From the NCBI GenBank assembly GCA_030595715.1, contig JAUVCN010000001.1:1418-65417 (forward strand): a DNA stretch of 64,000 bases, in the 5' to 3' direction. The stretch's first letter is position 1, and the number at the start of each line of letters is the position of its first letter. This stretch comes from Thermoplasmatales archaeon. Its GTDB lineage: Archaea; Thermoplasmatota; Penumbrarchaeia; Penumbrarchaeales; Penumbrarchaeaceae. A program made the translations under genes and the position numbers. Positions 1,983 to 47,101 of this stretch are shown here, piece by piece. Below the pieces are notes generated by a model that searched no databases, was not told the origin of the DNA, and saw nothing but the letters and a program-made list of their open reading frames with translations.

Positions 1983-7106
<5,124 letters not shown>

Positions 7107-18782: not shown

Positions 18783-20602
18783 CAGGCCACCTCCTTCTTC
18801 TCTTCCACGATCTCCCCTTTCTTTCCATCCTCTATCTTCACCGGGGGATCCTCCTTCCTGCTCTCTTTTAGACCTTCTTCGGTCTTACTTTCTTTCTTCT
18901 GTTCTTGCTGGGGGGCCTTGTTATCCTTCTTCTTATCTTCCGGGATCTCCAGTTTCTTTCCATCCTCGATCTTCACCGAGGGATCCTCCTTATTGATCTC
19001 TCCATTACCCTCTCCGGTCTTGCTCTCTTCCTTCTTTTCGGAGGGGATCTTGTTATCCTTCCTCTTATCTTCCGGGATCTCCAGTTTCTTTCTGGGACCT
19101 GACCTTCTATCAGGCTTCGATCCCTCCTTCCTGCCGTCCCTGTTTTCGAAGACCTTCAAAAGTTTATCCCTGATCTGCTCATTCGATCTCTTGTCCTCTT
19201 CATCATCCATCTGGGCAGCCTTGTCTCTCTGCCCTTCCCAGAAAATTGCCATCTCTTCATGGAGCTGGGTCCTTCTCTCGAGCCATCCCTTTCTGCTCTC
19301 CTTTTCACGGATCTTTCTCTGGGCACCGATGAACTTTTCATGATGAAGATTTGACTCTTCCACCTTCTCGAGCAATTTCGAGTGGAGGTCCTCGATACTT
19401 ATCAGATTCTGTGATATCTTCTCCTCGATCTCGGTCAGACTCTGTTTTATCTCCTCGGGTGTGAGACCGTCGGTTATTGACCTGATCTTCTGCATCGTCT
19501 CTTTGACCTCATCAAGAAGTCTCCTTTCAGTGGCGATGTCAATGGCCTCGGTCTCCAACTTCCATTCCAGGTCCTGGATGTAAGATTGATGCATGCGAAT
19601 ATCTTGTTCATGGTCCTTGACCTTTTCTTCCTTCCTTATCAGATCGAAGAACTGCTGGCGAAGTTCCTTGTTCTCTCCCTTCAGCCTGGTCCTGCCATCT
19701 TTGAGATCAGCGACCTTCTTGTTTATCTGGTCGCGTTTTACTTTTTCTTCATCAGATTCCTCATCGGCCTTTTCGGGAGGTTTCTCAAGGTCCTTTTTCT
19801 CCTTGATATATTTCTTGATCAGGTCCTTGTGTTTCTTTACGATCCTATCGACCATCACCGCCCTCTTTTGGATCTCGATATCCTTCAGCATTTCCGAACC
19901 GTCTTCGGGGATTGGTGGGAATTCTATCTTCTTCGGAGGTTCCGATCGATCCGGTTCCTTCCGGTTTCCCTTCTCTTCATCCTTGGATATTTTCTTTGAT
20001 CCCTCTTGAGGTGCACCTGTCGATCCCTTTTCATCCTTCTTCTCTTCGGGTCCATCATCCTTTTTCTTGGAGGGGGCCTTCACCTTTTCTGCAGAAGGTT
20101 CTTCCATCTTCTCTTCAACAGGATCTTCTTCCTTCTTGGAAGGGGCCTTCACCTTTTCTGCAGAAGGTTCTTCTACCTTCTCCCCGGCAGGATCTTCTTC
20201 CTTCCTGGAGGGAACCTTCACCTTTTCTGCAGAAGGTTCTTCTACCTTCTCCCCGGCAGGATCTTCTTCCTTCTTGGAGGGAACCTTCACCTTTTCTGCA
20301 GAAGGTTCTTCTACCTTCTCTTCAACAGGATCTTTTTCCTTCTTGGAGGGAACCTTCACCTTTTCTGCAGAAGGTTCTTCAACCTTCTCCCCGGCAGGAT
20401 CTTCTTCCTTCTTGGGATCAGGTTCGGATATCTCATCGATATTCTCTTCTCCATTTTTCTCCTTTTCAGGAGTTTCGTTCTCTTTGATATCGGCCTCCGG
20501 GGCTGGAGCTGGCTTGACCTCGACGGAAGGGACATTGTCCTTTTCATCCTCTTTGGTCTCAACCTTGCTCGCCTCGGTCGTTACATCCTCTTTCTCTTTC
20601 AT
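18782..20602 (-). CDS. K/E-rich tandem-repeat protein with a central COG1340-like coiled-coil core
   Basis: 606 aa. The N-terminal region has 5 copies of a 23-aa repeat (KKEEDPAGEKVEEPSAEKVKVPS). The centre is a coiled coil. The C-terminal region has 2 copies of a roughly 44-aa repeat (KKLEIPEDKxKDNK...VKIEDG). Confidence 0.7.
   Translation of the reverse strand: MKEKEDVTTEASKVETKEDEKDNVPSVEVKPAPAPEADIKENETPEKEKNGEENIDEISEPDPKKEEDPAGEKVEEPSAEKVKVPSKKEKDPVEEKVEEPSAEKVKVPSKKEEDPAGEKVEEPSAEKVKVPSRKEEDPAGEKVEEPSAEKVKAPSKKEEDPVEEKMEEPSAEKVKAPSKKKDDGPEEKKDEKGSTGAPQEGSKKISKDEEKGNRKEPDRSEPPKKIEFPPIPEDGSEMLKDIEIQKRAVMVDRIVKKHKDLIKKYIKEKKDLEKPPEKADEESDEEKVKRDQINKKVADLKDGRTRLKGENKELRQQFFDLIRKEEKVKDHEQDIRMHQSYIQDLEWKLETEAIDIATERRLLDEVKETMQKIRSITDGLTPEEIKQSLTEIEEKISQNLISIEDLHSKLLEKVEESNLHHEKFIGAQRKIREKESRKGWLERRTQLHEEMAIFWEGQRDKAAQMDDEEDKRSNEQIRDKLLKVFENRDGRKEGSKPDRRSGPRKKLEIPEDKRKDNKIPSEKKEESKTGEGNGEINKEDPSVKIEDGKKLEIPEDKKKDNKAPQQEQKKESKTEEGLKESRKEDPPVKIEDGKKGEIVEEKKEVA
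18823..19090 (-). repeat. In-frame roughly 130-bp tandem repeat, 2 copies, in the C-terminal region of the K/E-rich protein
   Basis: The string ttatccttcttcttatcttccgggatctccagtttctttc occurs twice. The protein units are KKLEIPEDK(R/K)KDNK...PxVKIEDG. Confidence 0.7.
20070..20420 (-). repeat. In-frame 69-bp tandem repeat, 5 copies, coding for KKEEDPAGEKVEEPSAEKVKVPS units
   Basis: Direct repetition is visible in the DNA (cttggaaggggccttcaccttttctgcagaaggttcttc...) with a period of 69 nt. Confidence 0.8.
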
Positions 20603-25659: not shown

Positions 25660-25899
25660 ATGTTCTTATTACATTTCCTCCTTGCAGGTGTTGGTGTGCC
25701 AATGCAGAAGTACAATAAGGAAAGCCTGAAGCAAGAAAAAAGCAGGGTGAACCACCTCCTTGACGAAGAGAATAGACATTGTGCGAAGTGCAAGGATAAG
25801 AAGATCTTTGGTTGCGAGGGCTGTTTCCATGACAGGAGAAAGAAAGCCCTACTGATCAGGAAAGAGAACAACATTGCTGCAATGGCTGCACAGAAATGA
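25660..25899 (+). CDS. Small C4 zinc-ribbon protein (the start may be the ATG at 25702)
   Basis: CAKC...CEGC arrangement. The stop TGA overlaps the glyS ATG (ATGA), which suggests translational coupling. Confidence 0.4.
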   Translation: MFLLHFLLAGVGVPMQKYNKESLKQEKSRVNHLLDEENRHCAKCKDKKIFGCEGCFHDRRKKALLIRKENNIAAMAAQK

Positions 25900-27710
25900 T
25901 TTCCACCGGTGGTCAGATGTCCGGATCCCCTATTGACCCTGATAATGGGAAAGCGTCTGAACTCTCAGCTCTCCTGAAACGAAGAGGATTCTTCTTCCCT
26001 TCCTACGAGATCTACGGTGGAGTCGCCGGATTCTTCGACATGGGGCCGATGGGCTCTCTCCTCAAGGATAATATTATCAAAAAATGGAAGGATCGGTTTG
26101 TTATCGAGGAGGGATTCCTGCTTGTGGACTGTCCATCTATCGCCCCAGAGGTCGTTTTCAGACATTCAGGTCATCTTGACAAATTCTCTGACATGCTGAC
26201 AAGATGCACCGATTGCTCCGAACCTTTCAGGGCTGATCATCTGCTGGACGATATCATTGAAAATGCAGATTCCTTGTCAGAGGACGAATTATTTACTGCT
26301 CTGAAGGAAAATGATGTGAAATGCCCGAATTGCGGCGGATCGCTCGGCCCTCTTGAAGAGTTCAATCTTATGTTCAAGACATATATAGGTACAGGCTCAG
26401 ATCGTCCCGCTTTCCTCAGACCCGAGACGGCACAATCCATCTTCTTAGATTTCCCTCTGCTTTACAGAACGAACAGGGAAAAGATACCTTTCGGTGTTGC
26501 ACAGATCGGCAAGGGGTTCAGGAATGAGATATCACCAAGACAGGGACTCCTCAGACAGAGAGAGTTCCATATGGCCGAGGGAGAGTTCTTCTTCGACCCC
26601 GAAGCAGATGGATTTCCTGCCTTCGACACCTACAGGGACCTCAAGGTGAACCTTGTTGCCAACACCGATCCGGATAATTCCATTCGAAAAGAGCTATCCT
26701 CGGCAGTTTCCGAGGGAATGATCTGTTCAGAGGTCTTGGGATATTTCATGGGAGTGACCCATTCATTCGCCAGAGAGATCGGCATACCAGAGGACAGAAT
26801 GAGGTTCAGAGAGCATCTTGATACAGAGATGGCACATTACGCAAGGGATTGTTGGGACCTGGAGGTTCTAACATCCTATGGATGGATCGAAATGGTGGGA
26901 ATTGCCGATAGATCCGCATACGATCTCGAACAGCACACGAAGGGATCGGGACAGGAAATGACGGCAATGAGAAGATATCCGGAACCGATCCAGAAAGAGG
27001 TCACAACGATCTCCGTGAACATGAAGGTCCTTGGACCGATCTTCAGGGGAGCGGCAAAGGAAGTGAACGATGCTGTTTCTCTTCTTGACCCGGCCGCTGT
27101 CAAGGAATTGCTGGAGACAGGCGAACCTGTAAAAGTGGTCATTTCACAGGGTGAAGTAGAGGTACCTCCGGGATCACTTTCCATAGCGACCGAGGAGAAG
27201 AGAGTGGCGGGTGAAAGATTTACCCCACACGTTGTCGAACCATCGTTCGGTATAGATAGATTGATGGTAGCGGTGATCGAACACGCCTATTTTGAAGCGG
27301 AGAAGAGCCCCCTCAGGGAAGAGGCATCTGATGGGGAAGGTCCATACCGTGTTATGAGGCTGCTCCCGTCGATCTCACCCGTGAAATGCGGTGTATTCCC
27401 ATTGATGAACAAGGATGGGCTTCCGGAATTGGCCATCCCGATCGAAAAAGACCTCAGAAAGTGTGGTCTGATCACATATTACGATCATTCAGGTTCCATC
27501 GGCAGAAGATATGCGAGGATGGATGAGATAGGAACCCCCTTCAATGTGACCATCGATTACGAGTCAAAGGACGACGGCTGTGTTACCATCAGAGAGAGGG
27601 ATACAGGCATCCAGAAACGGGTACCTATTTCACGGATCGTTAACGTGATCAGTGACCTTGTTTCCGAGAAGATCATCTTTGATGATCTGGATCAGCCGGT
27701 CATCTCCTGA
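25896..27710 (+). CDS. glyS: Glycine--tRNA ligase (archaeal/eukaryotic-type class II)
   Basis: 604 aa with class II motifs, an inserted Zn-binding segment (CTDC...CPNCG) and a C-terminal anticodon-binding domain. Confidence 0.95.
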   Translation: MISTGGQMSGSPIDPDNGKASELSALLKRRGFFFPSYEIYGGVAGFFDMGPMGSLLKDNIIKKWKDRFVIEEGFLLVDCPSIAPEVVFRHSGHLDKFSDMLTRCTDCSEPFRADHLLDDIIENADSLSEDELFTALKENDVKCPNCGGSLGPLEEFNLMFKTYIGTGSDRPAFLRPETAQSIFLDFPLLYRTNREKIPFGVAQIGKGFRNEISPRQGLLRQREFHMAEGEFFFDPEADGFPAFDTYRDLKVNLVANTDPDNSIRKELSSAVSEGMICSEVLGYFMGVTHSFAREIGIPEDRMRFREHLDTEMAHYARDCWDLEVLTSYGWIEMVGIADRSAYDLEQHTKGSGQEMTAMRRYPEPIQKEVTTISVNMKVLGPIFRGAAKEVNDAVSLLDPAAVKELLETGEPVKVVISQGEVEVPPGSLSIATEEKRVAGERFTPHVVEPSFGIDRLMVAVIEHAYFEAEKSPLREEASDGEGPYRVMRLLPSISPVKCGVFPLMNKDGLPELAIPIEKDLRKCGLITYYDHSGSIGRRYARMDEIGTPFNVTIDYESKDDGCVTIRERDTGIQKRVPISRIVNVISDLVSEKIIFDDLDQPVIS

Positions 27711-28458
27711 TGATCTTCTTCAGAATGAAGAACGGCAGTGATAGGACCAGACCGAAAAGGCAAAGCACGAGTCCTATTGCAACGATCCATCCCATTGTAT
27801 CTATCAAGAAGTTACCCACAGGTGCATCCCATCCGAGGCCACTGAGCAGATTGTCCTGGACCAGTGCCCATACGATGATCAGGACCGTGAACAATGTCAG
27901 ACCCAACCATGAGTTCTTGAAATCCTGTTTGGAGGGGGCCATCGCAGTGGTCAACGATGCAGCCAGGTATAGGTAGAGAATGAACCAGAGGGACCTGTTA
28001 TCGAACAGATTTATCTTGATCAGGTCAAAAGCGGATCTGAATGTGCCGATCAGCATGGAACCCACATTCCATTCGATCGAATGGGTCCATGTGAGATCGC
28101 AGTTGAAGGACCCTACATTATCAAAAAGGAGTGCCAGCAAGATCAACAGAAGTGGGATCCCAAAGAAAGGGGCCATTGAAATGAAAGCCTGTGATAAAAC
28201 ACCACCCCTTTCGGGAGGACCATGCGTAACCGAACCTCCCTCACTACTTATCAATTTGACATTAGTTACATGAGCCCCTGTTATCTTGCAGGCAGCATAA
28301 TGGCTCAGTTCGTGAATGATTATACCTGGCGCCGCAAACACGAGATATATCCATCTACCCAGAGACATCGCCCACATCCTGTCAAGGAAATATGAACAGA
28401 CGATCAGAACGGCAAACCAGAATAGTAGGTCAATAACAGATGATAGCATTGCGATCAC
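27700..28458 (-). CDS. Polytopic membrane protein with an HExxH zinc-metalloprotease motif (M50/DUF3267-like)
   Basis: 252 aa with about 6 TM helices. HELSHY lies at the end of TM2. The gene is convergent with glyS and the two overlap by 11 nt. Confidence 0.6.
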   Translation of the reverse strand: MIAMLSSVIDLLFWFAVLIVCSYFLDRMWAMSLGRWIYLVFAAPGIIIHELSHYAACKITGAHVTNVKLISSEGGSVTHGPPERGGVLSQAFISMAPFFGIPLLLILLALLFDNVGSFNCDLTWTHSIEWNVGSMLIGTFRSAFDLIKINLFDNRSLWFILYLYLAASLTTAMAPSKQDFKNSWLGLTLFTVLIIVWALVQDNLLSGLGWDAPVGNFLIDTMGWIVAIGLVLCLFGLVLSLPFFILKKIIRR

Positions 28459-28530
28459 GATTACATCTTGAAAATATTAAAGTTTATCTAACGGGGAAGG
28501 AATGGATGGGATAGTATCGATCATCCTGCA

Positions 28531-28890
28531 ATACCGTTGTGCGCACTTTGGTTTTTTATAATAATCATATTCTAATCGATAAAACCAAAGTCAATAAAAA
28601 CAAAGAAAAAATGCCGAAATTTCTCGTAAATTGCTCACGTTACTTGTCGATATTCTCGCAATTTCGAGATGCTGCAGCAATGGATCGTCGATTCTACATT
28701 ACCATTGTGCGCACTTTGGTTTTTTACATTAATCATATTCTAGTCAATAAAACCAAAGTCAATAAAAACAAAGAAAAAATGCCGAAATTTCTCGTAAATT
28801 GCTCACGTTACTTGTCGATATTCTCGCAATTTCGAGATGCTGCAGCAATGGTTCGTCAATTATATACTACCATTGTGCGTGTCTTGAAAT
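28531..28890. repeat. Intergenic 168-bp tandem direct repeat, 2 full copies plus about 20 bp of a third, roughly 94% identical
   Basis: The units start at 28534, 28702 and 28870 (ccgttgtgcgcactttggtttttt...). Each unit holds an 11-bp inverted repeat (actttggtttt / aaaaccaaagt) around an AT-rich loop. Confidence 0.85.
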
Positions 28891-29039
28891 TCCATAACAG
28901 CTATAAATCGCTCAGCAATTTCAAGATCTCGTCAATTACATATTGATACGCAAGTTCGAGATCCCGTTCAATTAAACCGTCAATATCTCATTTCATTGAA
29001 CGGATTTTTATTTTCGACACTGATTATACATTGATCAAG

Positions 29040-29080
29040 AAAATAAAAAAAAGGGGAGCTGTTTCCAGCCCCCCATGGTC
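29040..29080 (-). terminator. Hairpin plus oligo-U terminator after the TSP3 surface-protein gene
   Basis: The minus-strand RNA is GGGGGGCUG-GAAA-CAGCUCCCC (9-bp stem, GAAA loop) followed by UUUUUUUUAUUUUC. Confidence 0.6.
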
Positions 29081-29095
29081 AGGTATTGTTATCCT

Positions 29096-32000
29096 TCAAT
29101 CCTTTCTGACCTGATCGATGGGAAAGACCAGCACAGGAAGGACCTCATCCAGACCGATCCTTGCGAGTATCTCATTGATGGTCTCCACCATTTCATCAAC
29201 ATCTATTTCCGGTGTCCCGACCGAGATCGTCAGGATCCTTGATGAGGTCTCCTCGACAGCACCGAATTCAATGGTGGACCTACTTGGTCCAGTTTTTGGA
29301 ACTAGTATGTTTCCCTTTCCAGGCCATGAATCCTTATCAGTGGGGTCCGTATGTCCGCGGTATTCGTAATTATTGTTGTATTTGTCAGAATCATCATCCT
29401 CCTCTGCATCGGTGATACCATTCATATTGGTATCTTTCCTGTCCCCATAGAGTTTGCCGATGTAGTAATCAGGATTGATGCTCAGACCAAACGGAATGAA
29501 GATCCTTCTGCCAACAGTATCGGATGTTGACCATGGGTCCCATGTGACGTTGGTATCCTCGTAGATATAACACTCCGGCTTGTTCCACATGGTCCCATTG
29601 AACAGTTCTTCCCACCCTCTCGGGAGTGAATCATTGTCCTCGAAAGGCTGCGGATCTGATACGTTTCCAATGTAGTCGGTAACCCATACTTCCCAACCAT
29701 CGGGCATCATATCACCATCGGTATCATATCCTCCATTGATGTTGTATTCCAGGTCCCTTGGAGCTGGAGATGTTGTTATCTCATTGATACCATCATTATC
29801 AGGATCGAGACCGAACTGGTATTCGTAGAGATTGATCCACGGGAAGTAATATTCCACCAGCTCGAATTCCGTCTTTGCAGTGTTGAGCGGCGTCCAGATG
29901 GAGTAGACGAAACCGTCATGGTCAGCGTCGAGGGCCCAATCGTCCCCGTCCAGAGGATCGAGGATCCAGGCATACTTCCTCTTCTCAGCATTGTAGAGAG
30001 GAGCACCCCTGTTCTCATCAGCCAGTTCCCAACCATCGGGCATACCATCGCCGTCCGTATCCCATTTCAGTGGGTCCGTACCGTTCTGGTATTCTTCCCA
30101 GTTGGTCAGACCATCGTTGTCCGGATCATCGAACACATCCGAAGGGATCCTGGGGTTGACTACCCAGAAGTGTCCGCCAGGCTGGAGGTTCTGCCAGTAG
30201 TTGGTGGAATAGGTCCTGTCATACCAGAGGATGATCGACTTCGTGTCGGATGATTTGATTATCTTACCATATCGATATTCCCAACCGTCCGGAAGTCCAT
30301 CATAGTCTGTATCGGGTATGGTTGGATTGACCCTGTCATCGGTGGACCAGACGTCACCAAGCTCCACATCGGAGTAGTCACCATCCTGATTGGCGTCATA
30401 GTTATCGTTCCTGTCCCAGTCCACCAGCGGGAAGAAGTCCACAGTGTTCTCAAGACCATCTTCCATACCATCGTTATCAGTATCAGGATCATTTGGATCG
30501 GTGATCCATTCCCTGTAGTTCGGTATCCTGAACAGCTCATCGAAATCGGACATCACATCATGGTCAGTATCCTTCTTGTTTGGATCTGTCCTTACAATAC
30601 CAAGCCTGGACTGTGACCAGATCTTGACGGTATCGATACCGAACAGTTCGTCCACATCATGCCATCCGTCAAGGTCAGTATCGGGGTTGGTTGCATTTGT
30701 CCTTTCAAAGAGAAGTACCTCCCCCTCTGCCTCATCGACCTCACCATCTCCGTCATCATCGAAGCCGTTGTCAGGAAGCACATATTTGGTCATTCCCCTT
30801 GTCTCTTCCCAGTCATCCAGTCTTCGTGATTGGTTACCCTGTTCTCCGCCGGCTTCGGATCCTCCGAAATCGTTATCGGAATCGGCAAGGGTCGCATTGG
30901 TGAAATAGATCGAGGCGATATCAGGATCATAGAAGTAATTGTCACCGATAAGCTCACCATAGAACCCGATCATCAACTCCTCACCATCGGTCAGCCCGTC
31001 ACCATCGGTGTCCGGGTCGTTGGGATTGGTCGATACCGGATACTGTAGTGTCCCCAGGAATTCCTGCAAGTTGGTCATACCATCAGGGATCCTGGTGAAT
31101 ACGACCTGTCCGGTCTCGGTGATGTTCCACCATCCATCATTGTCAGACTCGCCATCGGCGATCATTGGTGAAACGGTGTATATCGTTTTCCTTGAATCTG
31201 ATATCTTGTCCTCCAGGTCCTCCTTGGTGTTAAGAGCAGGTTCCTGCGAGATGATCTTGGCATTGTATGCCTCCCATCCGTCAAGCATCCCGTCACCATC
31301 GGTATCGGGGTTCTTAGGATCCGTCTGGAACCAGAGTGTATCCTTGTTGGGGAAGGCATTCTCGAGATAGTTCGGAAGACCATCGTTATCCAGATCCTTG
31401 AACCTGTCAGTGGAGTTCAACGGATCGAGACCGGTTTCCAGCTCCCAGCCGTCGAACATTCCATCACCATCGGAATCTGCCATATACGGGCAGGTCTTGA
31501 AATCGTTTATTCCGTCCCCGTTCCAGTCAACAGCCGACTTTGCATATTCAACGTTAAGCTCGATGAAGTCGTTGAGGATATATAGCTCACCTGTCAGGGC
31601 GTTGAAGTGGGAATCCCTATCAGTGTCCCAGAGCAAGGGTGAGGTATGGTTCTGATATTCTTCCCTGTTGGAGAGACCATCATTGAAGTAGATCATTATC
31701 TCTGTCTTCTGTCCACCGGAAACAGAGAATGCATACCTGATGTCAAGGTCGTATCCACCATCATTTGGATTGAGTGGTGATATCAGGTCCTTGCTCCATG
31801 CTACAGATGATGCAGAGGTCACTTCAAGTACCTGCTTCGGACCGATAACGGACGCTTCAAGCAGATTGTTGATGGATCCCTCATAGACCAGTGTATCCAA
31901 TCCTGTGAAGAACTCATCCTTGAATTCCTCGGCATAATGGATCTCCCAACCATCATCGATACCGTCGAGGTCAGTATCCCAGAGCGATGGATTCGTTGTG

Positions 32001-32707
32001 ACCGGTTTGTAGATCTGTGGAAGATAGGGATTGTATCTCAGATAATCATCTGCGATATCGTTGTCGATGTTCGTGGGATCGTTCATCAATCCATCGATGG
32101 GATCATCGTAAAGATGGAATCCACCTTTCATGCCGATCTCCTGCCAGTCAAGCACAGGATCCAGCTCACCAAAGGTAGGATCTCCCTTCTCGAAGGCCAT
32201 GGTGGTGAAGTTGAACTCCACTCCTCCCACATATTCCCTGAGATTGAACAGCTCCTCACTCTTGTCGATGACACCGTTGTTGTTCATATCGAATCCATCA
32301 CCATCAGGGTTTCCGTCCCAATCATTGGAGTTTGGATCAATGGTCAACCTCTCGGTGATCGGATTGGGTCTGCTGTAGAGAGCTTCCCACCCATCTTCCA
32401 TGCCATCATAGTCGGAGTCAGGTTTCCTCCAGTCTGTCCCGTAGATATAGTTCTCCTCGATATCGGAGAGCTTATCGGGCCAGTCCTGATATTCATTATC
32501 GATCAGCCTTACATCGGAGTCGGATTTCTTCACACCGACCCAGGAACGTTCAGCCTCCTCGTATGGTCCTCCTTCCTCGATCGCTCCGGTGTTCTCCCAG
32601 GGGACGAAAATATATATGAATATCATTCCGCCCACTGTGGCGATCACCAATCCTATCAAAACTGCTAGAAATTTTTGCATGTCAAGCTTGTCTGCTATGG
32701 ATCCCAT
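29096..32707 (-). CDS. N-terminally anchored giant surface protein with multiple thrombospondin type-3-like Ca-binding repeats
   Basis: 1203 aa with an N-terminal TM (FLAVLIGLVIATVGGMIFIYIF). There are at least 10 DxDxDGxxDGWE repeats, for example DTDGDGMLDGWE, DTDGDGMPDGWE and DPDNDGLTNWEE. Confidence 0.8.
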   Translation of the reverse strand: MGSIADKLDMQKFLAVLIGLVIATVGGMIFIYIFVPWENTGAIEEGGPYEEAERSWVGVKKSDSDVRLIDNEYQDWPDKLSDIEENYIYGTDWRKPDSDYDGMEDGWEALYSRPNPITERLTIDPNSNDWDGNPDGDGFDMNNNGVIDKSEELFNLREYVGGVEFNFTTMAFEKGDPTFGELDPVLDWQEIGMKGGFHLYDDPIDGLMNDPTNIDNDIADDYLRYNPYLPQIYKPVTTNPSLWDTDLDGIDDGWEIHYAEEFKDEFFTGLDTLVYEGSINNLLEASVIGPKQVLEVTSASSVAWSKDLISPLNPNDGGYDLDIRYAFSVSGGQKTEIMIYFNDGLSNREEYQNHTSPLLWDTDRDSHFNALTGELYILNDFIELNVEYAKSAVDWNGDGINDFKTCPYMADSDGDGMFDGWELETGLDPLNSTDRFKDLDNDGLPNYLENAFPNKDTLWFQTDPKNPDTDGDGMLDGWEAYNAKIISQEPALNTKEDLEDKISDSRKTIYTVSPMIADGESDNDGWWNITETGQVVFTRIPDGMTNLQEFLGTLQYPVSTNPNDPDTDGDGLTDGEELMIGFYGELIGDNYFYDPDIASIYFTNATLADSDNDFGGSEAGGEQGNQSRRLDDWEETRGMTKYVLPDNGFDDDGDGEVDEAEGEVLLFERTNATNPDTDLDGWHDVDELFGIDTVKIWSQSRLGIVRTDPNKKDTDHDVMSDFDELFRIPNYREWITDPNDPDTDNDGMEDGLENTVDFFPLVDWDRNDNYDANQDGDYSDVELGDVWSTDDRVNPTIPDTDYDGLPDGWEYRYGKIIKSSDTKSIILWYDRTYSTNYWQNLQPGGHFWVVNPRIPSDVFDDPDNDGLTNWEEYQNGTDPLKWDTDGDGMPDGWELADENRGAPLYNAEKRKYAWILDPLDGDDWALDADHDGFVYSIWTPLNTAKTEFELVEYYFPWINLYEYQFGLDPDNDGINEITTSPAPRDLEYNINGGYDTDGDMMPDGWEVWVTDYIGNVSDPQPFEDNDSLPRGWEELFNGTMWNKPECYIYEDTNVTWDPWSTSDTVGRRIFIPFGLSINPDYYIGKLYGDRKDTNMNGITDAEEDDDSDKYNNNYEYRGHTDPTDKDSWPGKGNILVPKTGPSRSTIEFGAVEETSSRILTISVGTPEIDVDEMVETINEILARIGLDEVLPVLVFPIDQVRKD

Positions 32708-32933
32708 TATATTGCCTCCACGGACAAAATGGCCGGCTCAATATATCGCCATGAAATAACCGTTCCTTTATTAAATCTTTTGGAGAACCTGGCCAGAGGC
32801 CAGGATCACCTGATAAACCGTTCCTTACCCTCAGGTTTGTCAATGGTAATTTGACACTTGTAACTATATAAGCTTGATCATCACATGAACAGGATATCCA
32901 GCTTTGAACAATGAAGCTCCAAAGGGGCCCGAC

Positions 32934-35900
32934 CTAAAGATCAGGGATGTCAGGAGGAGGTGGGAGTTTTGTCAACCCCCTGCTTTCCTGAGGTGATCCG
33001 ATGTCAGTGGCGGGGATCGTTCCTGGATCGGTAGGTCCTGCCTCGGGTTGTTGTTCCGATGGACCAGGTGGAACAAGTTCCGGGGAAACCCCATTCACAT
33101 CGGATAGAATCTCTTGAGGCTGCTGATCGTCGAATGTTGCCTTGTCGGGTTCTCCCATAGGGGAAACCTGATCGGTATCCGGTGGGGACGGAGGCTGCTG
33201 CCACTGTTCCTGATCTGCAGGGTGTGGATCCGTACCCTGCGGAGAATACTGCATCTGAACATCCTGGGAATAGGGATCGGTCACCTGCTGCTCGTATGCT
33301 CCCTGATCCACATAGGCCTCCTGATCCGAATACTGTCCCGTTCCTGGATCTGTATATTCCATCTCGGCCGGAGGAAGGCCCTCATATCCACCCGGGGGTA
33401 TCTCTTGATATCCCATCTCAGCCTGTGGAGGTAATACCGGAAACTCCATTCCGGGAAGCATTGGAGTAACAGACGCAACAGCTTTCGGCTTGTTCCTCTT
33501 CTTCATGACAAGAAACACAAAAATGAACATTACTGCCAGGAACATGACAAGAATAACACCAATATACATCATGATCGGGATGCCCGAATATTTGCTATCG
33601 GGATGATTGCCCGGATCCATCGGATCAAATGACATCGAGATCTCCTTTCCATCGGTCCAACCATCCTCATCCGTATCAGGATTGATAGGATTCAGGTTAC
33701 ATCTATGTTCCATGCAGTATCTGAATTCCTCAAGGTTGGTCAGGCCATCATTGTCCGGGTCGAGATCGGCATCGGATCTATCTGTGGGATCAAGCCCGTA
33801 TCTTCTCTCCCATGCATCATCCATCTCGTCACCATCCTGATCAGGATCCGGTTCAGGGGCAACGACCGATAGGAGGACGGTTACCTCGTCGGAATAGGCC
33901 TTTCCATCGAATATCCTCAAGGTTGCCGTATATGATCCGCCATCGACATAGGTATGCTCGACCCTGTTCATATCGATCCCTTGAACGAGGGGGGTCCCAT
34001 CCCCGAAGTCCCAGATATAGGTCAGGTCATCTCCATCTTCATCATCTCCTTCAGGAGTGTTGAAGAATACAGTAAGATTACCATCTGTAGCATCGAAATA
34101 GACATTCTCTATCTGCGGAACGTCATTGACGTTCTGAATTGTCACCTTGCACACCCCCCAATCCGATAGGAGGGACAGGTCACTTACTGTGATATTGATC
34201 TCCCATTCACCGTTCATCTCTTCCGTTATTGCTTTCAGTATCAATCTTCCGGTCTGCGGGTTGAAATCAATGGCATTTGGAGGCGCTGCAAGTGATAGTG
34301 CCCCAAGTTCGAAACCGAACATCAATTGATCACCGTTGTCGATATCAGGATCGGTTGCCACCGGATTGATGTAGAGATACTCGTCCTCTATGGTGGACTT
34401 TGATGCAGGAACGATGATCGTTGGAGGATCGTTGACATTCGAAACCTCCACAATAACGCTCATTTCAGCTTCTCCATCATTGCCATCTTCCACCCAGACC
34501 ATCAGTTCTACCTCTGGAATGTCGTCATCCCCTGGGATGAACCACATCTCACCGGATGTGTGATTGATCAAGAAGTTCACACCCGGAACAGGATCCGAAA
34601 GGACCTCCTCTATATTCCAGTCGAATGATAGAATATCCCACTCATCAATATCTTCTGCTACCATGCTCAGAACGACCTTTTCATCCTGTTCTTTCTGGAA
34701 CCGGATAAGAACATCCTGTTCATCAACAGACCTTGTGCCTATCCTCTTTATCACAGGTGGATCGTTCACCTCTCGAACCTGAAGCCAGATATCGAGTTCG
34801 GCAAATTTCCTAAATGTCCCGTCATCAGTGGCATTTATTGTAAGAACGAATGTCCCGAACTTGTTCGCCTTCGGGGTCACGATCAACAGATTTGGTTCAC
34901 CTGATGTCTGTGGAGGTTTGATAAAGGCCGTAATATTATCATCTCTGTAGGATTGAATCCATTCACCGTTTGGTGCAAGTATCGAGAACTCGAATTTTGT
35001 TGTGGGATCCGGATCTGTGAACAGAGGATCAAGATCGATCTCGTAAGTGGGTGAATCTTCCTCAAGTTCCACCAGATATACCTCACCAACGGCTGATGAT
35101 GGAGGAAGATTATCATCAATAATGACAGTGAACGTTTCCAGTGCATCGAGGGAGTGGAAAGCCCAATCCTTACCATCGAACGCGGAGAAGTTCAACGTAT
35201 GAACCGCATCCTTTCCCAGGATGGAACCGGGAACATCCACACCATAGATGACGCCTGCTGCGTGATCTGACCCACTTCCGGATATTGGGGATAGTTCCCT
35301 GAAAGGTTCCTCATCATTCCAGACCCATATCTGCCTGGGGGTCTCATTGTTGGCATCGACATATTCGACCCTGAATTCGAATATATCGGTCGACCTGCCC
35401 CTCTCAAGATTTACCGTGGGGTTTTTCAGGATGGGGCGGTTGTTCGGGATATCAGGATATATCGAGCCGGTGAACGAATAAGATGTGGACCCCTGTATAT
35501 CGCTGTATGTCTTCTGATTTATATTGGGGGTAATACCATTTATACCAAATGTCTGGATCACCATACCTATCACCATGCGGGTGCAGTTCTTCCGGAGGTA
35601 AAGATGATAGGGTTCTGCTTCCAGACCTGCAGACTGGAAGGTCGGATTGGGAGATATTCTCTTTATTTCATTGGTGTATTGACCCGGATTCGATCTGGAA
35701 TTATAACTGATATACAGGTCGACCTCGATCCCGTAATCTATTGTTCCTCCGCTGGTGTTCGGCGTAGGATTGCTGAAAGATAACATCATATCAACGACGG
35801 TAGGATGGATCGGGTTTGGAGCATTTATCTCATACCAGTCCATCAGGTCCCGGTCCTGGTCAAGGCCACCGATCAAGCCTCCTGTCATCGGGGTTGGGAG

Positions 35901-36491
35901 GGCCTCATCATTGCTTGGATCCATGGGCGGAACTGAAGATATCGTCACTGTGAAATTGTAGGATACTGTTCCAGAGACAGATGATCCGGTCCCGTTCTGA
36001 GCAAGGATCCTCACACCATATATTCCTGAATAGGAAGCATCAGCCGTGCAAATCTGGGGAAACCATGGATCCTCCTGGTAGGCTTTCAGGTTGAGGACTA
36101 TCTCATCATTGGTCCCGTGGTTAAGATTATTATTTGGATAGAATGCATAGATCAGGACGAAAACATAGTCGTAAAAGTAATTGGTGTCCAGATAGAGATA
36201 GGAGATCTCCAGCCTGTCAACCAAGGGACCATTTCCCCCATTCAGAACGATGTAGAAAAGATCATTATCCCCCTGGGTCAGATTCCCATGAAGTTCATAG
36301 TTACCATGGGTATTCGGAAGAAGATCTGCGCTAGTCCAGGCATCATTGCTTTCCGATTCCTCCACTATGGTCCTTGTTGGTGTTGATGATAGAGGCTCCG
36401 CATCATGGGACTCTGTTGCCACTACCATGAAGACCGATGACAGAAGCAGCAAGACCATGATGATCGACGGTATATTCTTTCCAGGGAACAT
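32934..36491 (-). CDS. Type-I surface protein with cadherin-like repeats, a PKD domain, TSP3 repeats, a TM helix and an acidic Pro/Gln-rich cytoplasmic tail
   Basis: 1185 aa with a signal peptide. Cadherin-type boundaries VREVNDPPVI, VSNVNDPPTI and IQNVNDVPQI. PKD motif WDFGDGT...HTY. TSP3 motifs DPDQDGDEMDDAWE and DTDEDGWTDGKE. TM helix IGVILVMFLAVMFIFVFLV. The tail is roughly 190 aa, rich in D, E, P and Q. Confidence 0.8.
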   Translation of the reverse strand: MFPGKNIPSIIMVLLLLSSVFMVVATESHDAEPLSSTPTRTIVEESESNDAWTSADLLPNTHGNYELHGNLTQGDNDLFYIVLNGGNGPLVDRLEISYLYLDTNYFYDYVFVLIYAFYPNNNLNHGTNDEIVLNLKAYQEDPWFPQICTADASYSGIYGVRILAQNGTGSSVSGTVSYNFTVTISSVPPMDPSNDEALPTPMTGGLIGGLDQDRDLMDWYEINAPNPIHPTVVDMMLSFSNPTPNTSGGTIDYGIEVDLYISYNSRSNPGQYTNEIKRISPNPTFQSAGLEAEPYHLYLRKNCTRMVIGMVIQTFGINGITPNINQKTYSDIQGSTSYSFTGSIYPDIPNNRPILKNPTVNLERGRSTDIFEFRVEYVDANNETPRQIWVWNDEEPFRELSPISGSGSDHAAGVIYGVDVPGSILGKDAVHTLNFSAFDGKDWAFHSLDALETFTVIIDDNLPPSSAVGEVYLVELEEDSPTYEIDLDPLFTDPDPTTKFEFSILAPNGEWIQSYRDDNITAFIKPPQTSGEPNLLIVTPKANKFGTFVLTINATDDGTFRKFAELDIWLQVREVNDPPVIKRIGTRSVDEQDVLIRFQKEQDEKVVLSMVAEDIDEWDILSFDWNIEEVLSDPVPGVNFLINHTSGEMWFIPGDDDIPEVELMVWVEDGNDGEAEMSVIVEVSNVNDPPTIIVPASKSTIEDEYLYINPVATDPDIDNGDQLMFGFELGALSLAAPPNAIDFNPQTGRLILKAITEEMNGEWEINITVSDLSLLSDWGVCKVTIQNVNDVPQIENVYFDATDGNLTVFFNTPEGDDEDGDDLTYIWDFGDGTPLVQGIDMNRVEHTYVDGGSYTATLRIFDGKAYSDEVTVLLSVVAPEPDPDQDGDEMDDAWERRYGLDPTDRSDADLDPDNDGLTNLEEFRYCMEHRCNLNPINPDTDEDGWTDGKEISMSFDPMDPGNHPDSKYSGIPIMMYIGVILVMFLAVMFIFVFLVMKKRNKPKAVASVTPMLPGMEFPVLPPQAEMGYQEIPPGGYEGLPPAEMEYTDPGTGQYSDQEAYVDQGAYEQQVTDPYSQDVQMQYSPQGTDPHPADQEQWQQPPSPPDTDQVSPMGEPDKATFDDQQPQEILSDVNGVSPELVPPGPSEQQPEAGPTDPGTIPATDIGSPQESRGLTKLPPPPDIPDL

Positions 36492-36619
36492 AGGGACACC
36501 CTCTACTGGATAATATTCCAGTTACATACGATATCGATTATAAGAGTTGTGATAGAATATTACCATTGGCATATTAGATGTGATCCTGAATACCCGGCTC
36601 TTCAAGGACCATGCCAGAC

Positions 36620-37936
36620 TCAGGGATATGCCCTTGTCATGGTCCTCGGGAAAGGAATGGCATCCTTGATGTTTTCCAGCTTGCATATCCATGCTATCAA
36701 TCTCTCGACACCGAGTCCATATCCCGAATGCTGGACCGAACCGTATCTCCTTAGATCAAGATACCAGTCATAGCTCTCGACGCTCTCTCCTTCCTTTTCG
36801 AGGGCCATGGAAAGTGACTCGATATCGGTATCCCTCTCGGATCCTCCAACGATCTCCCCATAACCCTCCGGCGCAAGGATATCGAAACATTTGGCAACAG
36901 GCCCTGGTGCATCCGCCCCTTCAAGGACCGGCTTGTAGAAGGCCATTGCTTCTTTTGGATATTCAACAACTCCAACAGGAGTGTCGAAAAGCTTCATCAG
37001 CTCCTCCTCCTCGACCGTCCTCAGGTCCTTGCCCCATTGCACATCCATCCCTGCCTTATCATTGAGAATTCCAAGTGCCTCTGTATACGTGATGACAGGC
37101 CATTCCTTCTCAAGAATATGGACCAATCCATCCGGGTCCACTTCCAGGATCTCAAGGTCACCTATGTTGTTCTCGAGAACCTTCTTGATGATGAACCTGA
37201 TCTCGTCCATTGCTATCTGAACAGCTTCCCTGTATCCGATCCATGCGGCTTCCATCTCTGCCATCCAGAACTCACTGAGATGCCTGGATGTCTTCGACCT
37301 CTCTGCCCGGAAGGTTGGTGAGACATCATATATCTTCTCCAGTGAGAATATGGCTGCTTCTGCATAGAGTTGCCAGGTCTGGGTCAGATAAATGGACCTA
37401 TCGTAATACTTAACTTCGAAAAGTGTCGATCCGCCTTCTGCCTGATTGGGTGTGAAAATTGGAGGTGTGAACTCGTGATATCCTTTCTTTCTGAAGAACT
37501 CATGGATGGCACCGGTAACGGTGGATCTTACCTTCAAGATGGCATTCATCTTTCTTGATCTGATCCATAGATGCCTGTTCTCCCTGAGGAATTCCTCCGA
37601 CTGGTCCTTTGTGATCGGGAACCTATCAGCCTTCGATATGGTCCTGACATCGTTCATGTGGACCTCGTATCCTCCGGGGGCCCTGTCATCTTTGTTCACA
37701 TTTCCTATGACGATGACAGAAGACTCCACCGGAAGATCCTTGGCGACGGTGAACAGATCATCTCCGAGGTCCGATCTGGATGCCACACATTGTATAATGC
37801 CTGTTGAATCCCTGATGACCATGAAAAGCATCTTGTTGCTACCTCTGGTCCGATAGATCCAACCTCTCAACCGTACCTCTGCTCCCTGGTAGCCTGGGTC
37901 CTTTGCTTCCTGAATGCTGATCGGTTCCTCATCCAT
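36620..37936 (-). CDS. aspS: Class IIb aminoacyl-tRNA synthetase, aspartate--tRNA ligase-like (Asp versus Asn specificity not resolved)
   Basis: 438 aa with an OB anticodon-binding N-domain and class II motifs (FRAERSKTSRHLSEFWMAEME, GLGVERL). The flipping-loop motif reads TQTWQLY rather than QSPQ. Confidence 0.75.
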   Translation of the reverse strand: MDEEPISIQEAKDPGYQGAEVRLRGWIYRTRGSNKMLFMVIRDSTGIIQCVASRSDLGDDLFTVAKDLPVESSVIVIGNVNKDDRAPGGYEVHMNDVRTISKADRFPITKDQSEEFLRENRHLWIRSRKMNAILKVRSTVTGAIHEFFRKKGYHEFTPPIFTPNQAEGGSTLFEVKYYDRSIYLTQTWQLYAEAAIFSLEKIYDVSPTFRAERSKTSRHLSEFWMAEMEAAWIGYREAVQIAMDEIRFIIKKVLENNIGDLEILEVDPDGLVHILEKEWPVITYTEALGILNDKAGMDVQWGKDLRTVEEEELMKLFDTPVGVVEYPKEAMAFYKPVLEGADAPGPVAKCFDILAPEGYGEIVGGSERDTDIESLSMALEKEGESVESYDWYLDLRRYGSVQHSGYGLGVERLIAWICKLENIKDAIPFPRTMTRAYP

Positions 37937-38001
37937 ATCACGGCCTCCATACGCTCAGGCGCCTTGAAGGAATGCCCCCTATATTAGGTTTAAGAGCGGG
38001 A

Positions 38002-41000
38002 TCATGGCCTTCTTCCGACCGGACGTCTCCTGCCACCTGGCCCATCATCCTCGATCTCGGCCATTCTAGATGAAGCATTTCGGTCCATATGCGATCTCCT
38101 TCTCTCCCTCGGGACCCTTTCCCTGCTTTCCCCGGCACCCGGCCTTCTGGACCCGGGTGACCTGGACCTACCTCTTCCGAACTCCCTTTCACTCTCGATC
38201 ACCTGCTTTTGCTGGATCCACTCCTCTCTCAATCTCTGGTTCCTTATTAGCAGGAAAACGACTATGATGATCGCGATCACGATCAAGATCATAATGAAAA
38301 TGGTCATGGGGACGTCGAGATCGTTCTTCTCCTTCTCTCCGGGATCATCCTGGACAAGGACAACTGTTATCTGGATCTCCTCGAGTTCCCAGTTACCCGA
38401 AATATCCTCTGCAATGACCTGAATGATATACATGCCGATATCCAGGGTCAGGATCAGGTGCCATGAGGTGGTACCTTCCGCTACAATCCAATCGCCTCCT
38501 TTCACCCTCACCCGGACCTGAAGCCATCCTGAATCGTCCAATGCGGTCCCTGTTATGGTGATATTGCCGTTCTCATGCCTTGAATTGTTCGCCGGTGACA
38601 GGATGGTCAACGTGGGAGGTTCATTATCCACCATTGAAGAAGTGTCGTATGTATAATGGATATCCATCTCCCTTATGTTTCCAGCAACGTCTTCTGCCTC
38701 GATCGTGAAGATATTCTCACCGGGTTCGAGAGTGACCACCCATTCGAAGGTCATGTTTCTCGAGAGCAATCGCGAGGCACCCGTTGAATTCGATCCTCTG
38801 ACAGCTTTTATTCCGCTGTTATCATACACTTCCCCCTGGATAAGGATGACAACTGTCCTGAAAGTAGACCGGTCAAGGGGCAGGATCCGATCGAACGTCG
38901 GTTTCTCGGTATCGTATATCACATCAAAAAAGATATCATTGACATTTCCTGCCCGATCCCTGGATGATATCGATATATTGTTCCTTCCCATGTAAAGTTC
39001 CACAACAGTGGAGAAGAGGCCATCTTGTTCGACATCGACCGGAATACCGTTCACCATCATATCAGCATCAGCTTCGGTCCATCCAGATATTGCCATATCC
39101 TTGTTGTTCGTGTACATGGGAGGTCTTATCATTTCGATGGATGGGGCAAGCGTGTCCACGAAGATATTCACAGAGGATGAGCCTACACTGCCGGTCTTAT
39201 CGAGGACCTCGACAGATATCCTGTTGATCCCTTCCTTCATGTCTTCAAGACGATATGAAAAACCCCTGAGGTCAAAATCGATCTCCACACCATTCAAAAT
39301 TACCATCACCGTATCATGTGAGATCGCTCCTTCCACAATGATCCAATCATTCTTCGTCCTTGTTCCATTTGCGGGGGACAGGATCATCACTGTTGGAGGT
39401 GTGGTATCGAGATCGATGGTCCTGATGATCCGAACGGTATTACCAGCCTGGTCCACCGCCTCGATCACTATGGAATTCCTTCCTTCTTTCAGGTATATAT
39501 CGAATGAGAATGTCCCATCCGAATGTGGTGCCAGATTCTCATCTATGTACAATCTGGCATCGACATCACACGATCCCTCAACCTTGATCGGGGTGAGGTT
39601 CGTGTATATGCCCTCGATTGGAGAGGTGACCGTCAATGATGGATCCACCGTGTCGATACCAAAATGGGTGAATGCCTCTGAAAACTTTCCATCATCGTTC
39701 ATTGTCCTCAATCTCAGATCATGTTCACGGTCGGATCCGAAATCAAGGTGGATCTCGAAGTTCTTGCTGGGTGTCATGAGGATCTCATTTCCACCATCAA
39801 GGAACATCGAAAAACTGACCAGTGGTCTCGGATCTGTGATCGTACCGGTTATCACAATGGACCTGGTATCGAACCATGTATTGTTCAGAGGTGAGCCGAT
39901 CTTGATCATCGGTTCTGATATGAGGACCTCTATCGTCTCGAATGTCCTTTCGAGAACGTTGAAGGACTTTGACCTCACAGCACCCTCATAAAGAACAGCC
40001 AACTGATGAGGATCATTACTATATTTACCGGTCGAATTGTAGTGGAATGCTATCAGAGGAAGGTCCGTTATCCATCCATTATCATCGGTCAGGGCCTGTC
40101 TCTCTACCTTCCCATCGGAACCTGATATCTCAACATCTGCCAACTTTGCCGGGAATCCGTTGTTCGTTGTTACCCCGATGTCGAACCTGTAAGCCTCGGT
40201 GACAACACTACTACCCTCGACCTCAACACCGCTCAGGGTCGTATTGAGGAGATGAATGATGGAAGGACCGGATCCAGACGTGACCAGAAGGAGATCATTG
40301 CCGATCTGCATGGGGTAGCAATCCATCAGTTCAATATTTGAAGAAATTGATTCCATCGCGAACATATACATACCATGGAGCCCGCTGTTTCTCATTTCAA
40401 TGTTCGATCGCTTGGAAAGAAGGGAAAGACCCGATTCCTGGAAGAAGTTCATATCTGCCATGACATTGGAATCCTCGGCATAGATAGCATTTCCCGGGAT
40501 GTTCGTTATGTTCACCCTGTTCGAGAGCAGGTATGAATCCTCGATCAGATGGATACCTTCGTCGTTACAGTTGGATATGGATGAATCCCTGATGGACATG
40601 TTCGCTCCATCTCCGATCAGTCCGATATTGCAAAATTGAATTGTACTGCAGTTCATGTAGAAATTGTCTGTTTCTATGTAGGGCCCGCTTTCTCGCAGCG
40701 GCCGCATGGGCAGACCACATCCATTTATGGTTGACCCGTTTATCTCGACATAAGAACCATCATGAGCCTCGAAAAAGAATATGGAACCATTGAGACCCAT
40801 GAGTTCGGAGCCGTTCCTGAGAACGAATGTCGCGTCATTGAGTACATAGATAGTGTTGGAAGCCATGCCGGATATGTTCATTCTGAGCGTAATATTATCC
40901 AGGATCAACGATCCTGAAACTGTCAGGTTCCCGTGTACATCTATGATGGAATCCTTATATGTCTCTGTCCCTGTGACAGACCAGTCTCCCGATATCGGTG

Positions 41001-46627: not shown

Positions 46628-47101
46628 TCACTTCACCTCCTGTTCAGGAAGCTTGATGTAGGCCTTTTCGGCCTCCATGTGTGACCTCATGTGGGAGACC
46701 GATCTGAAGATCCCACCCCCAGCATGCTTGTAATAACGTCTGTATGTCTCGATGGTGATGTTCCCATCGTCCCTGTAGGTCTTCAATGTCCTCCTGATGG
46801 GTCTGATGGTGTTTATCCATCTCCTCTTTTTGGGGAACCTTGCATATTTCGATCCTTTTCTGGAACCGTGACCTTTCCTCTTTCCGACCGCCTTCTGGGC
46901 CATCTTGGCCTTTTTTCTCCCTGAGGAGATCCCATGGATGGGTCTGGCCTTGATCACACCTTCGTTAACGAGCCTTCTGATATCCCCCCTGGTCACTGCA
47001 TCGGAGATATCCTCGATGTTATTGGGGTTCATACGAACCCTGTTCGCACCGCATTTGAGGACCACTGCTGCCATCCTCCTCTGATTCACAAGGTTCATCA
47101 C
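46628..47101 (-). CDS. rpl19e: Ribosomal protein eL19
   Basis: 157 aa, basic, with an L19e signature. Confidence 0.9.
   Translation of the reverse strand: MMNLVNQRRMAAVVLKCGANRVRMNPNNIEDISDAVTRGDIRRLVNEGVIKARPIHGISSGRKKAKMAQKAVGKRKGHGSRKGSKYARFPKKRRWINTIRPIRRTLKTYRDDGNITIETYRRYYKHAGGGIFRSVSHMRSHMEAEKAYIKLPEQEVK

Follow-up and report, generated by a model that had tools for sequence, protein, structure and literature searches.

In a 64,000-nucleotide (nt) stretch of a Thermoplasmatales archaeon contig (JAUVCN010000001.1, positions 1,418 to 65,417; hereafter the window), the AT-rich non-coding spacer between an M50B-like peptidase gene and a gene for a TSP3-repeat surface protein is tiled by approximately nine hairpins of 40-48 nt each, which belong to three types and follow one another in the order C-B-H3. 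The array probably represents an as yet undescribed family, either of structured RNAs or of hairpin DNA repeats. An initial annotation of the repeat had proposed a small RNA or regulatory cassette, which was right in direction at least, in that a two-hairpin module is conserved in relatives with compensatory changes. Among the readings that we weighed, we lean towards a structured small RNA encoded on the plus strand, divergently from the M50 gene, and hold it with a confidence that stops a little short of even.

Anatomy of the hairpin array

The spacer measures 637 nt (the initial annotation had put it at about 640 bp) and has a GC content of 0.35, versus 0.49 window-wide. Tandem Repeats Finder reported a repeat at 28532-28879 with a period of 168, 2.1 copies, 94% matches, 0 indels and a score of 626, while a repeat search and direct comparison of the 168-nt copies in register gave 93.5% identity with 11 mismatches. 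The tandem repeat of about 168 bp, with 2.1 copies and about 94% identity, that had been noted initially was thus borne out, and the unit starts given for it (28534, 28702 and 28870) describe the same array in a phase shifted with respect to the one used here (28516, 28684 and 28852). The features of the array are as follows.

28459-29095, no strand assigned: AT-rich non-coding spacer from the M50B-like peptidase gene to the TSP3 surface-protein gene, delimited by the open reading frame (ORF) map, GC content and Pfam matches of the flanking genes; contains the entire hairpin array
28516-28683, plus strand: repeat copy 1, 168 nt
28684-28851, plus strand: repeat copy 2, 168 nt, 93.5% identical to copy 1, with the last 105 nt identical
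28852-28879, plus strand: partial third copy, 28 nt, ~85% identical, giving the loop and 3' arm of hairpin H3-2
28545-28591, plus strand: hairpin C1, exact 11-nt arms ACTTTGGTTTT / AAAACCAAAGT (28545-28555 / 28581-28591) and a 25-nt AT-rich loop with TTTTATAATAA
28593-28600, plus strand: A/T box AATAAAAA, a candidate TATA box ending 21 nt before B1, repeated at 28761-28768 before B2
28613-28726, plus strand: module 1 (W1), covariance-model match
28622-28669, plus strand: hairpin B1, TCTCG-T-AAATTGC / GCAATTT-CGAGA, 12 pairs with a bulged T and a 23-nt loop
28670-28713, plus strand: hairpin H3-1, TGC-T-GCA-G-CAATGG / CCATTG-TGC-GCA, 18-nt loop with CGTCGAT; no linker after B1
28713-28759, plus strand: hairpin C2, exact arms ACTTTGGTTTT / AAAACCAAAGT (28713-28723 / 28749-28759) and a 25-nt AT-rich loop
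28720-28725, plus strand: T6 run 7 nt past H3-1, a possible plus-strand terminator that overlaps the 5' arm region of C2
28781-28894, plus strand: module 2 (W2), covariance-model match
28790-28837, plus strand: hairpin B2, identical to B1
28838-28881, plus strand: hairpin H3-2, loop with CGTCAAT; read on the plus strand, its two outermost pairs are U.G and G.U
28882-28926, plus strand: hairpin C3 (IR-C), diverged, TCTTGAAATT / AATTTCAAGA with a 25-nt loop containing CTATAAAT
28902-28908, plus strand: TATAAAT box in the C3 loop, ending 19 nt before B3
28918-29017, plus strand: third, degenerate B-H3 module (W3; B3 at 28925-28963, H3-3 at 28962-29004), from the covariance model and folding
28964-28976 / 28991-29003, plus strand: arms of H3-3, CCGTTCAAT / ATTGAACGG, loop with CGTCAAT, followed by TTTTT-A-TTTT at 29005-29014

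A unit consists of hairpin C, an A-rich linker, hairpin B and hairpin H3. Hairpins B and H3 abut and form a core module of ~95 nt, in which B has 12 pairs, an invariant bulged T and a loop of ~23 nt, and H3 has ~12 pairs and a loop of 17-22 nt with CGTC(A/G)AT. The fold of the whole spacer is more stable than that of shuffled sequences (z = -3.4 and -3.3 for the two strands). The 11-bp inverted repeats pointed out in the initial annotation are exact in both copies and correspond to the C-type hairpin; that survey had missed the conserved B and H3 hairpins and the third module. The plus-strand hairpin and T-run that it placed at about 28976-29015 are present, and belong to H3 of the third, degenerate module, with TTTTT at 29005.

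All 11 mismatches between the two copies lie within unit positions 5-63, such that 28579-28683 and 28747-28851 are the same over 105 nt; the chance of such clustering at a uniform rate is, by our own arithmetic, (63/168)^11, or ~2e-5. We attribute the identity over 105 nt to purifying selection or, with greater probability, to gene conversion between adjacent copies. Unit 2 alone also carries a 15-nt mini-repeat, AGTCAATAAAA(A/C)CAA, in 2.1 copies at 28742-28773, because two of the inter-copy mismatches (28575 and 28578) create it.

No known RNA accounted for the array. Rfam 15 matched no family anywhere in the window at gathering thresholds, and a search of the spacer at expectation values (E) up to 10 returned noise, with a best score of 24.6 bits against a threshold of 60. 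A search for tRNA and tmRNA found none, and a bacterial-type promoter scan, whose bacterial model is not relevant to an archaeon, returned 0 sites. A replication origin was also considered and set aside: there was no Orc1/Cdc6 domain among 29 neighbouring proteins, and the skew tracks the gene strand without a turn at 28.7 kb.

Homologous modules in relatives

A metagenome scan with the B-arm motif and a free loop led to contig L028, whose first 240 nt are AT-rich, include ~150 nt homologous to the unit, and are themselves tandem with a period of 143. A covariance model seeded with the two window copies and L028 (R1) then matched three modules that were not in its seed: the third module of the window (33 bits, E 2e-6), a module at 4650-4761 of L005 (76 bits, E 5e-18) and one at 12-121 of L032 (39 bits, E 3e-8). 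The rebuilt model R2 scored 78.7 bits on the third window module, which forms part of its own seed alignment, and 79.5 bits on the modules of L033/L034, contigs of ERZ25748493 and ERZ23498674 that were reached via the 90% cluster of the M50 peptidase; R2 recovers every known copy of the module at E < 1e-14. Modules were thus found in three related lineages (L005, L032 and L033/L034) and in L028, a sediment contig of uncertain origin. In the window, L005 and L033/L034 the module lies upstream of the M50 gene, on the opposite strand and pointing away from it; the arrangement in L032 is similar, with a 196-aa membrane ORF intervening. Hairpins of the C3 type also occur in L033 (CCTTGAAATT / AATTTCAAGG) and L032.

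No further module was found elsewhere in the 64-kb window, by blastn or by the covariance model with filters off, or by covariance model in ~67 kb of the relatives' loci. A degenerate-motif scan of genome contigs, a collection that excludes the window's own genome, yielded 15 single matches in unrelated bacteria, which were judged to be chance; motif scans of viral contigs gave none, or two chance matches within phage genes, and blastn against plasmid and phage collections gave no match. The initial annotation had proposed that a lack of transcription and of other copies would point to a neutral duplication; blastn indeed detected no dispersed copy in the 64 kb, yet copies exist at the same locus in other genomes.

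Positions 363-1602 of L028 match a PAS/dCache sensor gene of Desulfobacterales in L029 at 92% identity, the match beginning mid-gene at ~359, whereas positions 1-358 are AT-rich and carry, besides the hairpin modules, the start of a new ORF (MTIREIREAYDENYRK...) accompanied by a Shine-Dalgarno-like GAGGTG. At the join (~359) only TGGGTGGAGAAAA is shared, and the contig (1-1603) has a coverage of 0.76x. L028 may be either a chimeric assembly or a real insertion, and we do not accept it as evidence of spread across domains, because its bacterial part starts abruptly inside a gene and a contig of 0.76x may be chimeric.

Comparison of the modules pointed to conservation of structure rather than of sequence. 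In an alignment of seven modules from five loci, which was fitted to the model and in which W1 and W2 are near-duplicates, 95.1% of the pair cells held standard pairs and 14 of 24 pairs showed changes on both sides. None of 500 shuffles attained the observed pairing and covariation, and slid controls were 23-45% paired with 0-2 covarying pairs. RNAalifold independently predicts both the B and H3 helices, and these helices appear in the single-sequence minimum-energy fold of every module. The B arms of L005 (TTTCGTAACTTCG / CGAAGTTCGAAA), which are free of any search pattern, carry four double changes with respect to the window, and those of L033 (TATCG.../...CGATA) add a C-G to A-U replacement. 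The H3 stems are almost wholly different between copies (GCAGCAATGG, GCATAACAG, CCGTTCAAT and GCTGAAT), while the H3 loop motif and the bulged T of B are kept constant. Hairpin C covaries as well: ACTTTGGTTTT / AAAACCAAAGT in the window corresponds to TTTGTTTTTCT / AGAAAAACAAA in L033 (inverted repeat I5), a compensatory change of G-C to T-A. Pairs are thus kept by compensatory substitution, as in a structured RNA, although DNA palindromes would yield the same signal.

The gene order GlyRS, M50 and surface protein is conserved, and the slot between M50 and the surface protein is variable: it holds an HTH_HVO_0163/MarR-like gene in L001-L005 and an unrelated 196-aa membrane ORF in L032, while L006 (153-nt spacer) and L007 (no spacer) have neither gene nor module. 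The HTH gene stands without a module in L001-L004 and with one in L005, and the 196-aa ORF is accompanied by a module in L032. The possibility that the array is a pseudogene of the HTH gene filling the slot in L001-L005 was rejected, as tblastn and blastn detected no similarity.

L033/L034 are 87.5-88% identical to the window at the nucleotide level from GlyRS through M50 to position 28607. Past this point their array is rearranged and matches in pieces only, at 72-80%. They do not have the 168-nt tandem repeat and carry instead a 73-nt repeat of their own at 305-nt spacing, which indicates that the duplication in the window is younger than that split; judging from these sequences, it is a recent event. 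On the far side of the array, L034 and the window have nothing in common, and the array sits at a break of synteny. The start codon and first 14 codons of M50 in L005 form part of a 59-nt direct repeat (4563-4621 and 4783-4841); this repeat flanks a 161-nt segment that bears the module, and its upstream copy would encode a truncated peptide of 21 aa. The sister contig L001, whose M50 is 86% identical to that of L005, has a single 59-nt copy and no module, and looks like an empty site. Hairpin B of L032 is enclosed by a perfect inverted repeat of 48 nt, which extends to the contig end (1-178). L030 (1-110) also ends in a perfect inverted repeat, of 37 nt and without a module; contig ends at the outer edge of inverted repeats in L032 and L030 suggest assembly breaks at repeats or fold-back artefacts.

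Readings of the array

In the reading that we favour, one 168-nt unit (C, A-rich linker, B and H3) of a non-coding array upstream of M50 was tandemly duplicated recently, and the array would be transcribed from the plus strand, divergently from M50, into a structured small RNA. Each B-H3 module could give rise to one transcript of ~100-135 nt that starts ~20 nt past the A/T box and ends at the oligo-T after H3; alternatively, a single long transcript with multiple hairpins could end at 29005-29014. The conserved H3 loop may be a recognition site for a protein or a target, and the duplication would have supplied a second, near-identical copy of the RNA. On the module strand of four out of six modules (W1, W2, W3 and L005), an A/T box ends 19-21 nt ahead of B. 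H3 is followed by a T-run in W1 and W3, out of five modules whose H3 was scored, and also in the first, cut module of L028; matches of both kinds come cheaply in AT-rich DNA. In L005 no A/T box lies upstream of H3 on the other strand, and the only wobble pairs in the H3 extension, two in W2, are G.U on the plus strand.

A number of observations weigh against a plus-strand small RNA. The covariation comes from the small, model-fitted sample described above, with its near-duplicate pair, and templated (quasi-palindrome) mutation can keep palindromes perfect without selection. Both strands fold equally well, and the count of G.U versus A.C pairs, 2 versus 1, does not fix the strand. T-runs are missing after H3 in W2, L005 and module 2 of L028, while strong minus-strand T-runs after B (TTTTTTCTTTGTTTTT) in the window and L033 would suit the opposite reading. 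Since the C hairpins covary and their loops hold candidate TATA boxes, a long single transcript or a structure at the level of DNA fits better than short units, and no Rfam family matches the array. A target in the neighbouring gene was also tried and rejected, as the predicted duplexes between the module and the 5' region of M50 were no better than those of shuffled sequence (z -0.75 to +1.2); the H3 loop sequence GUCAAU is complementary to AUUGAC at M50 codons 7-8, a hexamer that follows from conserved Ile-Asp codons.

The main rival reading is that the array would be a selfish or recombinogenic palindromic DNA of the REP/BIME (repetitive extragenic palindromic sequence / bacterial interspersed mosaic element), BOX or MITE (miniature inverted-repeat transposable element) kind, of which any transcription would be incidental, an alternative that we consider possible but rather unlikely. 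Its hairpin units would multiply and be rearranged by template switching, slippage, unequal crossing-over or some unknown enzyme that binds hairpins, and the array would mark the edge of a variable region of cell-surface genes. In agreement with this, the module is patchily present in a variable slot (L001-L007 and L032); it lies in L005 between the 59-nt direct repeats, with L001 resembling the empty site; and the perfect inverted repeat of L032 surrounds B on a contig that stops at its edge, as is typical at repeats. Genomes with 88% identical flanks differ in the arrangement of the array, the homology between the window and L034 ending at its far end, and tandem duplications have occurred in the window as well as in L028 (period 143) and L033 (period 305). 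Furthermore, all three hairpin types stay paired and the two strands fold alike, as DNA palindromes would. Against such an element, a second copy was found neither in the 64 kb nor elsewhere in the ~67 kb of loci from relatives, the array of the window is bounded by neither terminal inverted repeats nor a short target duplication, no transposase, RAYT or integrase was found among the scanned neighbours, and plasmid, phage and viral collections had no match. A constant position and orientation with respect to M50 in four lineages would be unusual for a freely moving element, and the conserved loop motif and invariant bulged base indicate specific recognition.

In a further reading, a block to sense-strand (window minus-strand) transcription, the hairpins and T-runs would act as a multi-terminator, insulator or structured 3' tail between a strongly expressed surface-protein gene and the M50 promoter. 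The array does lie directly after the surface-protein terminator, the B hairpins of the window are each followed by TTTTTT-C-TTTG-TTTTT on the minus strand, the L033 linker also has T-runs on that strand, and the orientation with respect to the gene downstream does not vary among the window, L005, L032 and L033. We nevertheless regard this block as improbable: on that strand B lacks a following T-run in L005 and L028, the surface-protein gene already possesses a hairpin and T8 run, and L006, L007 and L030 have a short spacer or none. Moreover, archaeal termination requires oligo-T, and not conserved hairpins with conserved loop motifs. A neutral recent duplication within functionless spacer DNA, which we hold to be equally improbable, agrees with the youth of the duplication, its absence from the nearest relatives and the variation of copy number among genomes. 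For the module, the neutral reading is largely refuted: the module has been kept, with compensatory changes, where M50 proteins are only 69-76% identical and neutral intergenic DNA would no longer align, and the mismatches between copies are strongly non-uniform.

A last candidate product is a small repeat-containing protein, translated from a plus-strand ORF that remains open across the repeat since 168 nt equal 56 codons.

28539-28946, plus strand: ORF of 135 codons that traverses the repeat (168 = 56 x 3); considered non-coding

L028 likewise has an open frame over the same arms, and a protein from this ORF (from 28539, or from 28611, to 28946) is nonetheless very improbable. A search of 5.8 billion proteins with E up to 10 returned no homologue of the ORF, and comparison of the ORF with Pfam gave sub-threshold noise only. 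Its codon-usage score is -0.32 per codon, far outside the range of the genome's own genes, in which the lowest 111-codon window scores +0.04, and its GC content at third codon positions (GC3) is 0.41 versus 0.58 for those genes. Between the conserved arms, the window and L028 match at 9 of 24 bases (hand count) and the encoded residues are radically different, while the frame is disrupted in L005, L032 and L033. The initial annotation had likewise taken the ORF to be probably not a protein, and for annotation purposes the 135 codons over the array should not be called a gene.

Known repeat systems and the flanking genes

The closest analogues are tandem arrays of small-RNA genes and palindromic repeats of the REP/BIME or BOX type, and no tested family fits. 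Tandem paralogous small RNA genes are represented by NsiR1 in Nostoc/Anabaena and LhrC1-5 in Listeria. Like these, the present array consists of short non-coding units placed head to tail in one intergenic region, with a copy number that varies among relatives, and its units combine a stable hairpin with a promoter-like box and a T-run as candidate signals. Unlike them, it has two or three large-loop hairpins per unit, candidate promoter boxes inside hairpin loops and no sequence or Rfam match.

REPs are palindromes of 20-40 bp present in tens to thousands of copies per genome; those of the CGTC type have 8-9-bp stems, 4-5-nt loops and a CGTC tag unpaired at one end, and tagged REPs have been assigned to eight bacterial phyla, with no archaeal phylum named (Di Nocera et al. 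2013, PMC3733652). The array resembles REP/BIME and GTAG/CGTC repeats in its clustered extragenic hairpins, compensatory stems and CGTC tetranucleotide, and also in that such repeats are found for the most part downstream of genes and may be transcribed (PMC3733652). It differs in its hairpins of 40-48 nt, loops of 17-25 nt, CGTC placed within the loop and the single locus at which it was seen, and membership in the GTAG/CGTC REPs was rejected on size, loop length and tag position.

Like the array, BOX elements of S. pneumoniae and MITEs are AT-rich, built of modules and able to form hairpins, with varying numbers of an internal module and a patchy distribution in relatives. The array of the window lacks their terminal inverted repeats and short target duplication, and no dispersed copies were found in the sequence searched. 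A MITE, which the initial annotation had suggested, is thus not upheld: no inverted repeat spans the ends of 28516-29040, where there are internal hairpins only, and no target-site duplication was found, nor any second copy in the 64 kb, with some signs of mobility or recombination seen in relatives. The 59-nt direct repeat flanking the L005 segment is far longer than usual target duplications.

Integron attC sites share with the array a structure that is kept while sequence is free, extrahelical bases (here the bulged T in B and a bulged G in H3) and a place beside variable gene 'cassettes'. They differ in having one hairpin per cassette, as opposed to several per inter-gene gap here, and attC was rejected, since the core sites RYYYAAC / GTTRRRY are absent from the arms (TCTCGTAAATTGC / GCAATTTCGAGA and variants). 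No integrase domain was found among the scanned neighbours, which comprise part of the window ORFs.

A literature search for small RNAs or tandem repeats of Thermoplasmatota returned nothing relevant. To our knowledge, very few structured non-coding elements have come from uncultivated Thermoplasmatota, and none of this lineage is in Rfam. We propose, tentatively and with considerable doubt, that the C-B-H3 array is an undescribed archaeal structured element, namely an RNA with CGUC(A/G)AU recognition loops encoded divergently from the intramembrane M50 peptidase gene, or a hairpin site of recombination or mobility that bounds a rapidly exchanged cell-surface island in sediment Thermoplasmatota. 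The element is small and can be modelled by R2, and it combines compensatory evolution and a fixed place beside M50 with fast change of copy number and arrangement among close relatives. If it is an RNA, it would represent a new family for archaeal annotation and a candidate regulator; if it acts at the level of DNA, Archaea would have a REP-like hairpin repeat, here located at a synteny break, with a bearing on the exchange of cell-surface islands.

The genes on either side of the array lie on the opposite strand and have their own promoter and terminator, as the initial annotation had stated, and these signals were located outside the repeat.

27700-28458, minus strand: M50B-like peptidase gene, GTG start at 28458; the alternative ATG at 28451 gives 249 aa, in agreement with database protein P0001
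28474-28481, minus strand: TATA-like box TTTAATAT of the M50 gene, ~22 nt upstream of ATG 28451, outside the repeat and conserved in L033/L034
29043-29074 (hairpin 29053-29074), minus strand: terminator-like hairpin and T8 run of the surface-protein gene
29096-32707, minus strand: gene for the TSP3-repeat surface protein, 1203 aa, from Pfam

The ATG at 28451 is the probable start codon of M50, and the box TTTAATAT is of the same type as other promoters of the window. M50 and GlyRS are convergent and their 3' ends overlap by 11 nt (27700-27710), an overlap common to L006-L010 and L032-L034. The gene set of the window is archaeal, with aTrm56, a split RpoA, L19e and L32e among others; together with the naming of homologues of the M50 peptidase in their sources, it shows that the window derives from an uncultivated Thermoplasmatota archaeon.

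Some other features of the window lie apart from the array. A 79-aa ORF (25660-25899, plus strand) stands between the aTrm56-HD gene and GlyRS, and genes of 64-67 aa without a Pfam match were called at the equivalent place in L001, L002, L005-L008 and L031; the ORF is therefore probably a conserved small protein. In-frame tandem repeats at 18790-19092 (period 135, 2.3 copies) and 20064-20415 (period 69, 5.1 copies) lie inside a 606-aa minus-strand ORF (18782-20602) without a Pfam match, and a 90-nt tandem repeat (47485-47665, 2.0 copies, 91%) is located in the N-terminal extension of the L32e gene (47098-47676). Finally, a peptidase C25 (gingipain-like) gene at 15863-17851 lies near several very large surface proteins with PKD, TSP3 and Big domains (29096-41136), a combination that suggests a protein-degrading sediment archaeon.

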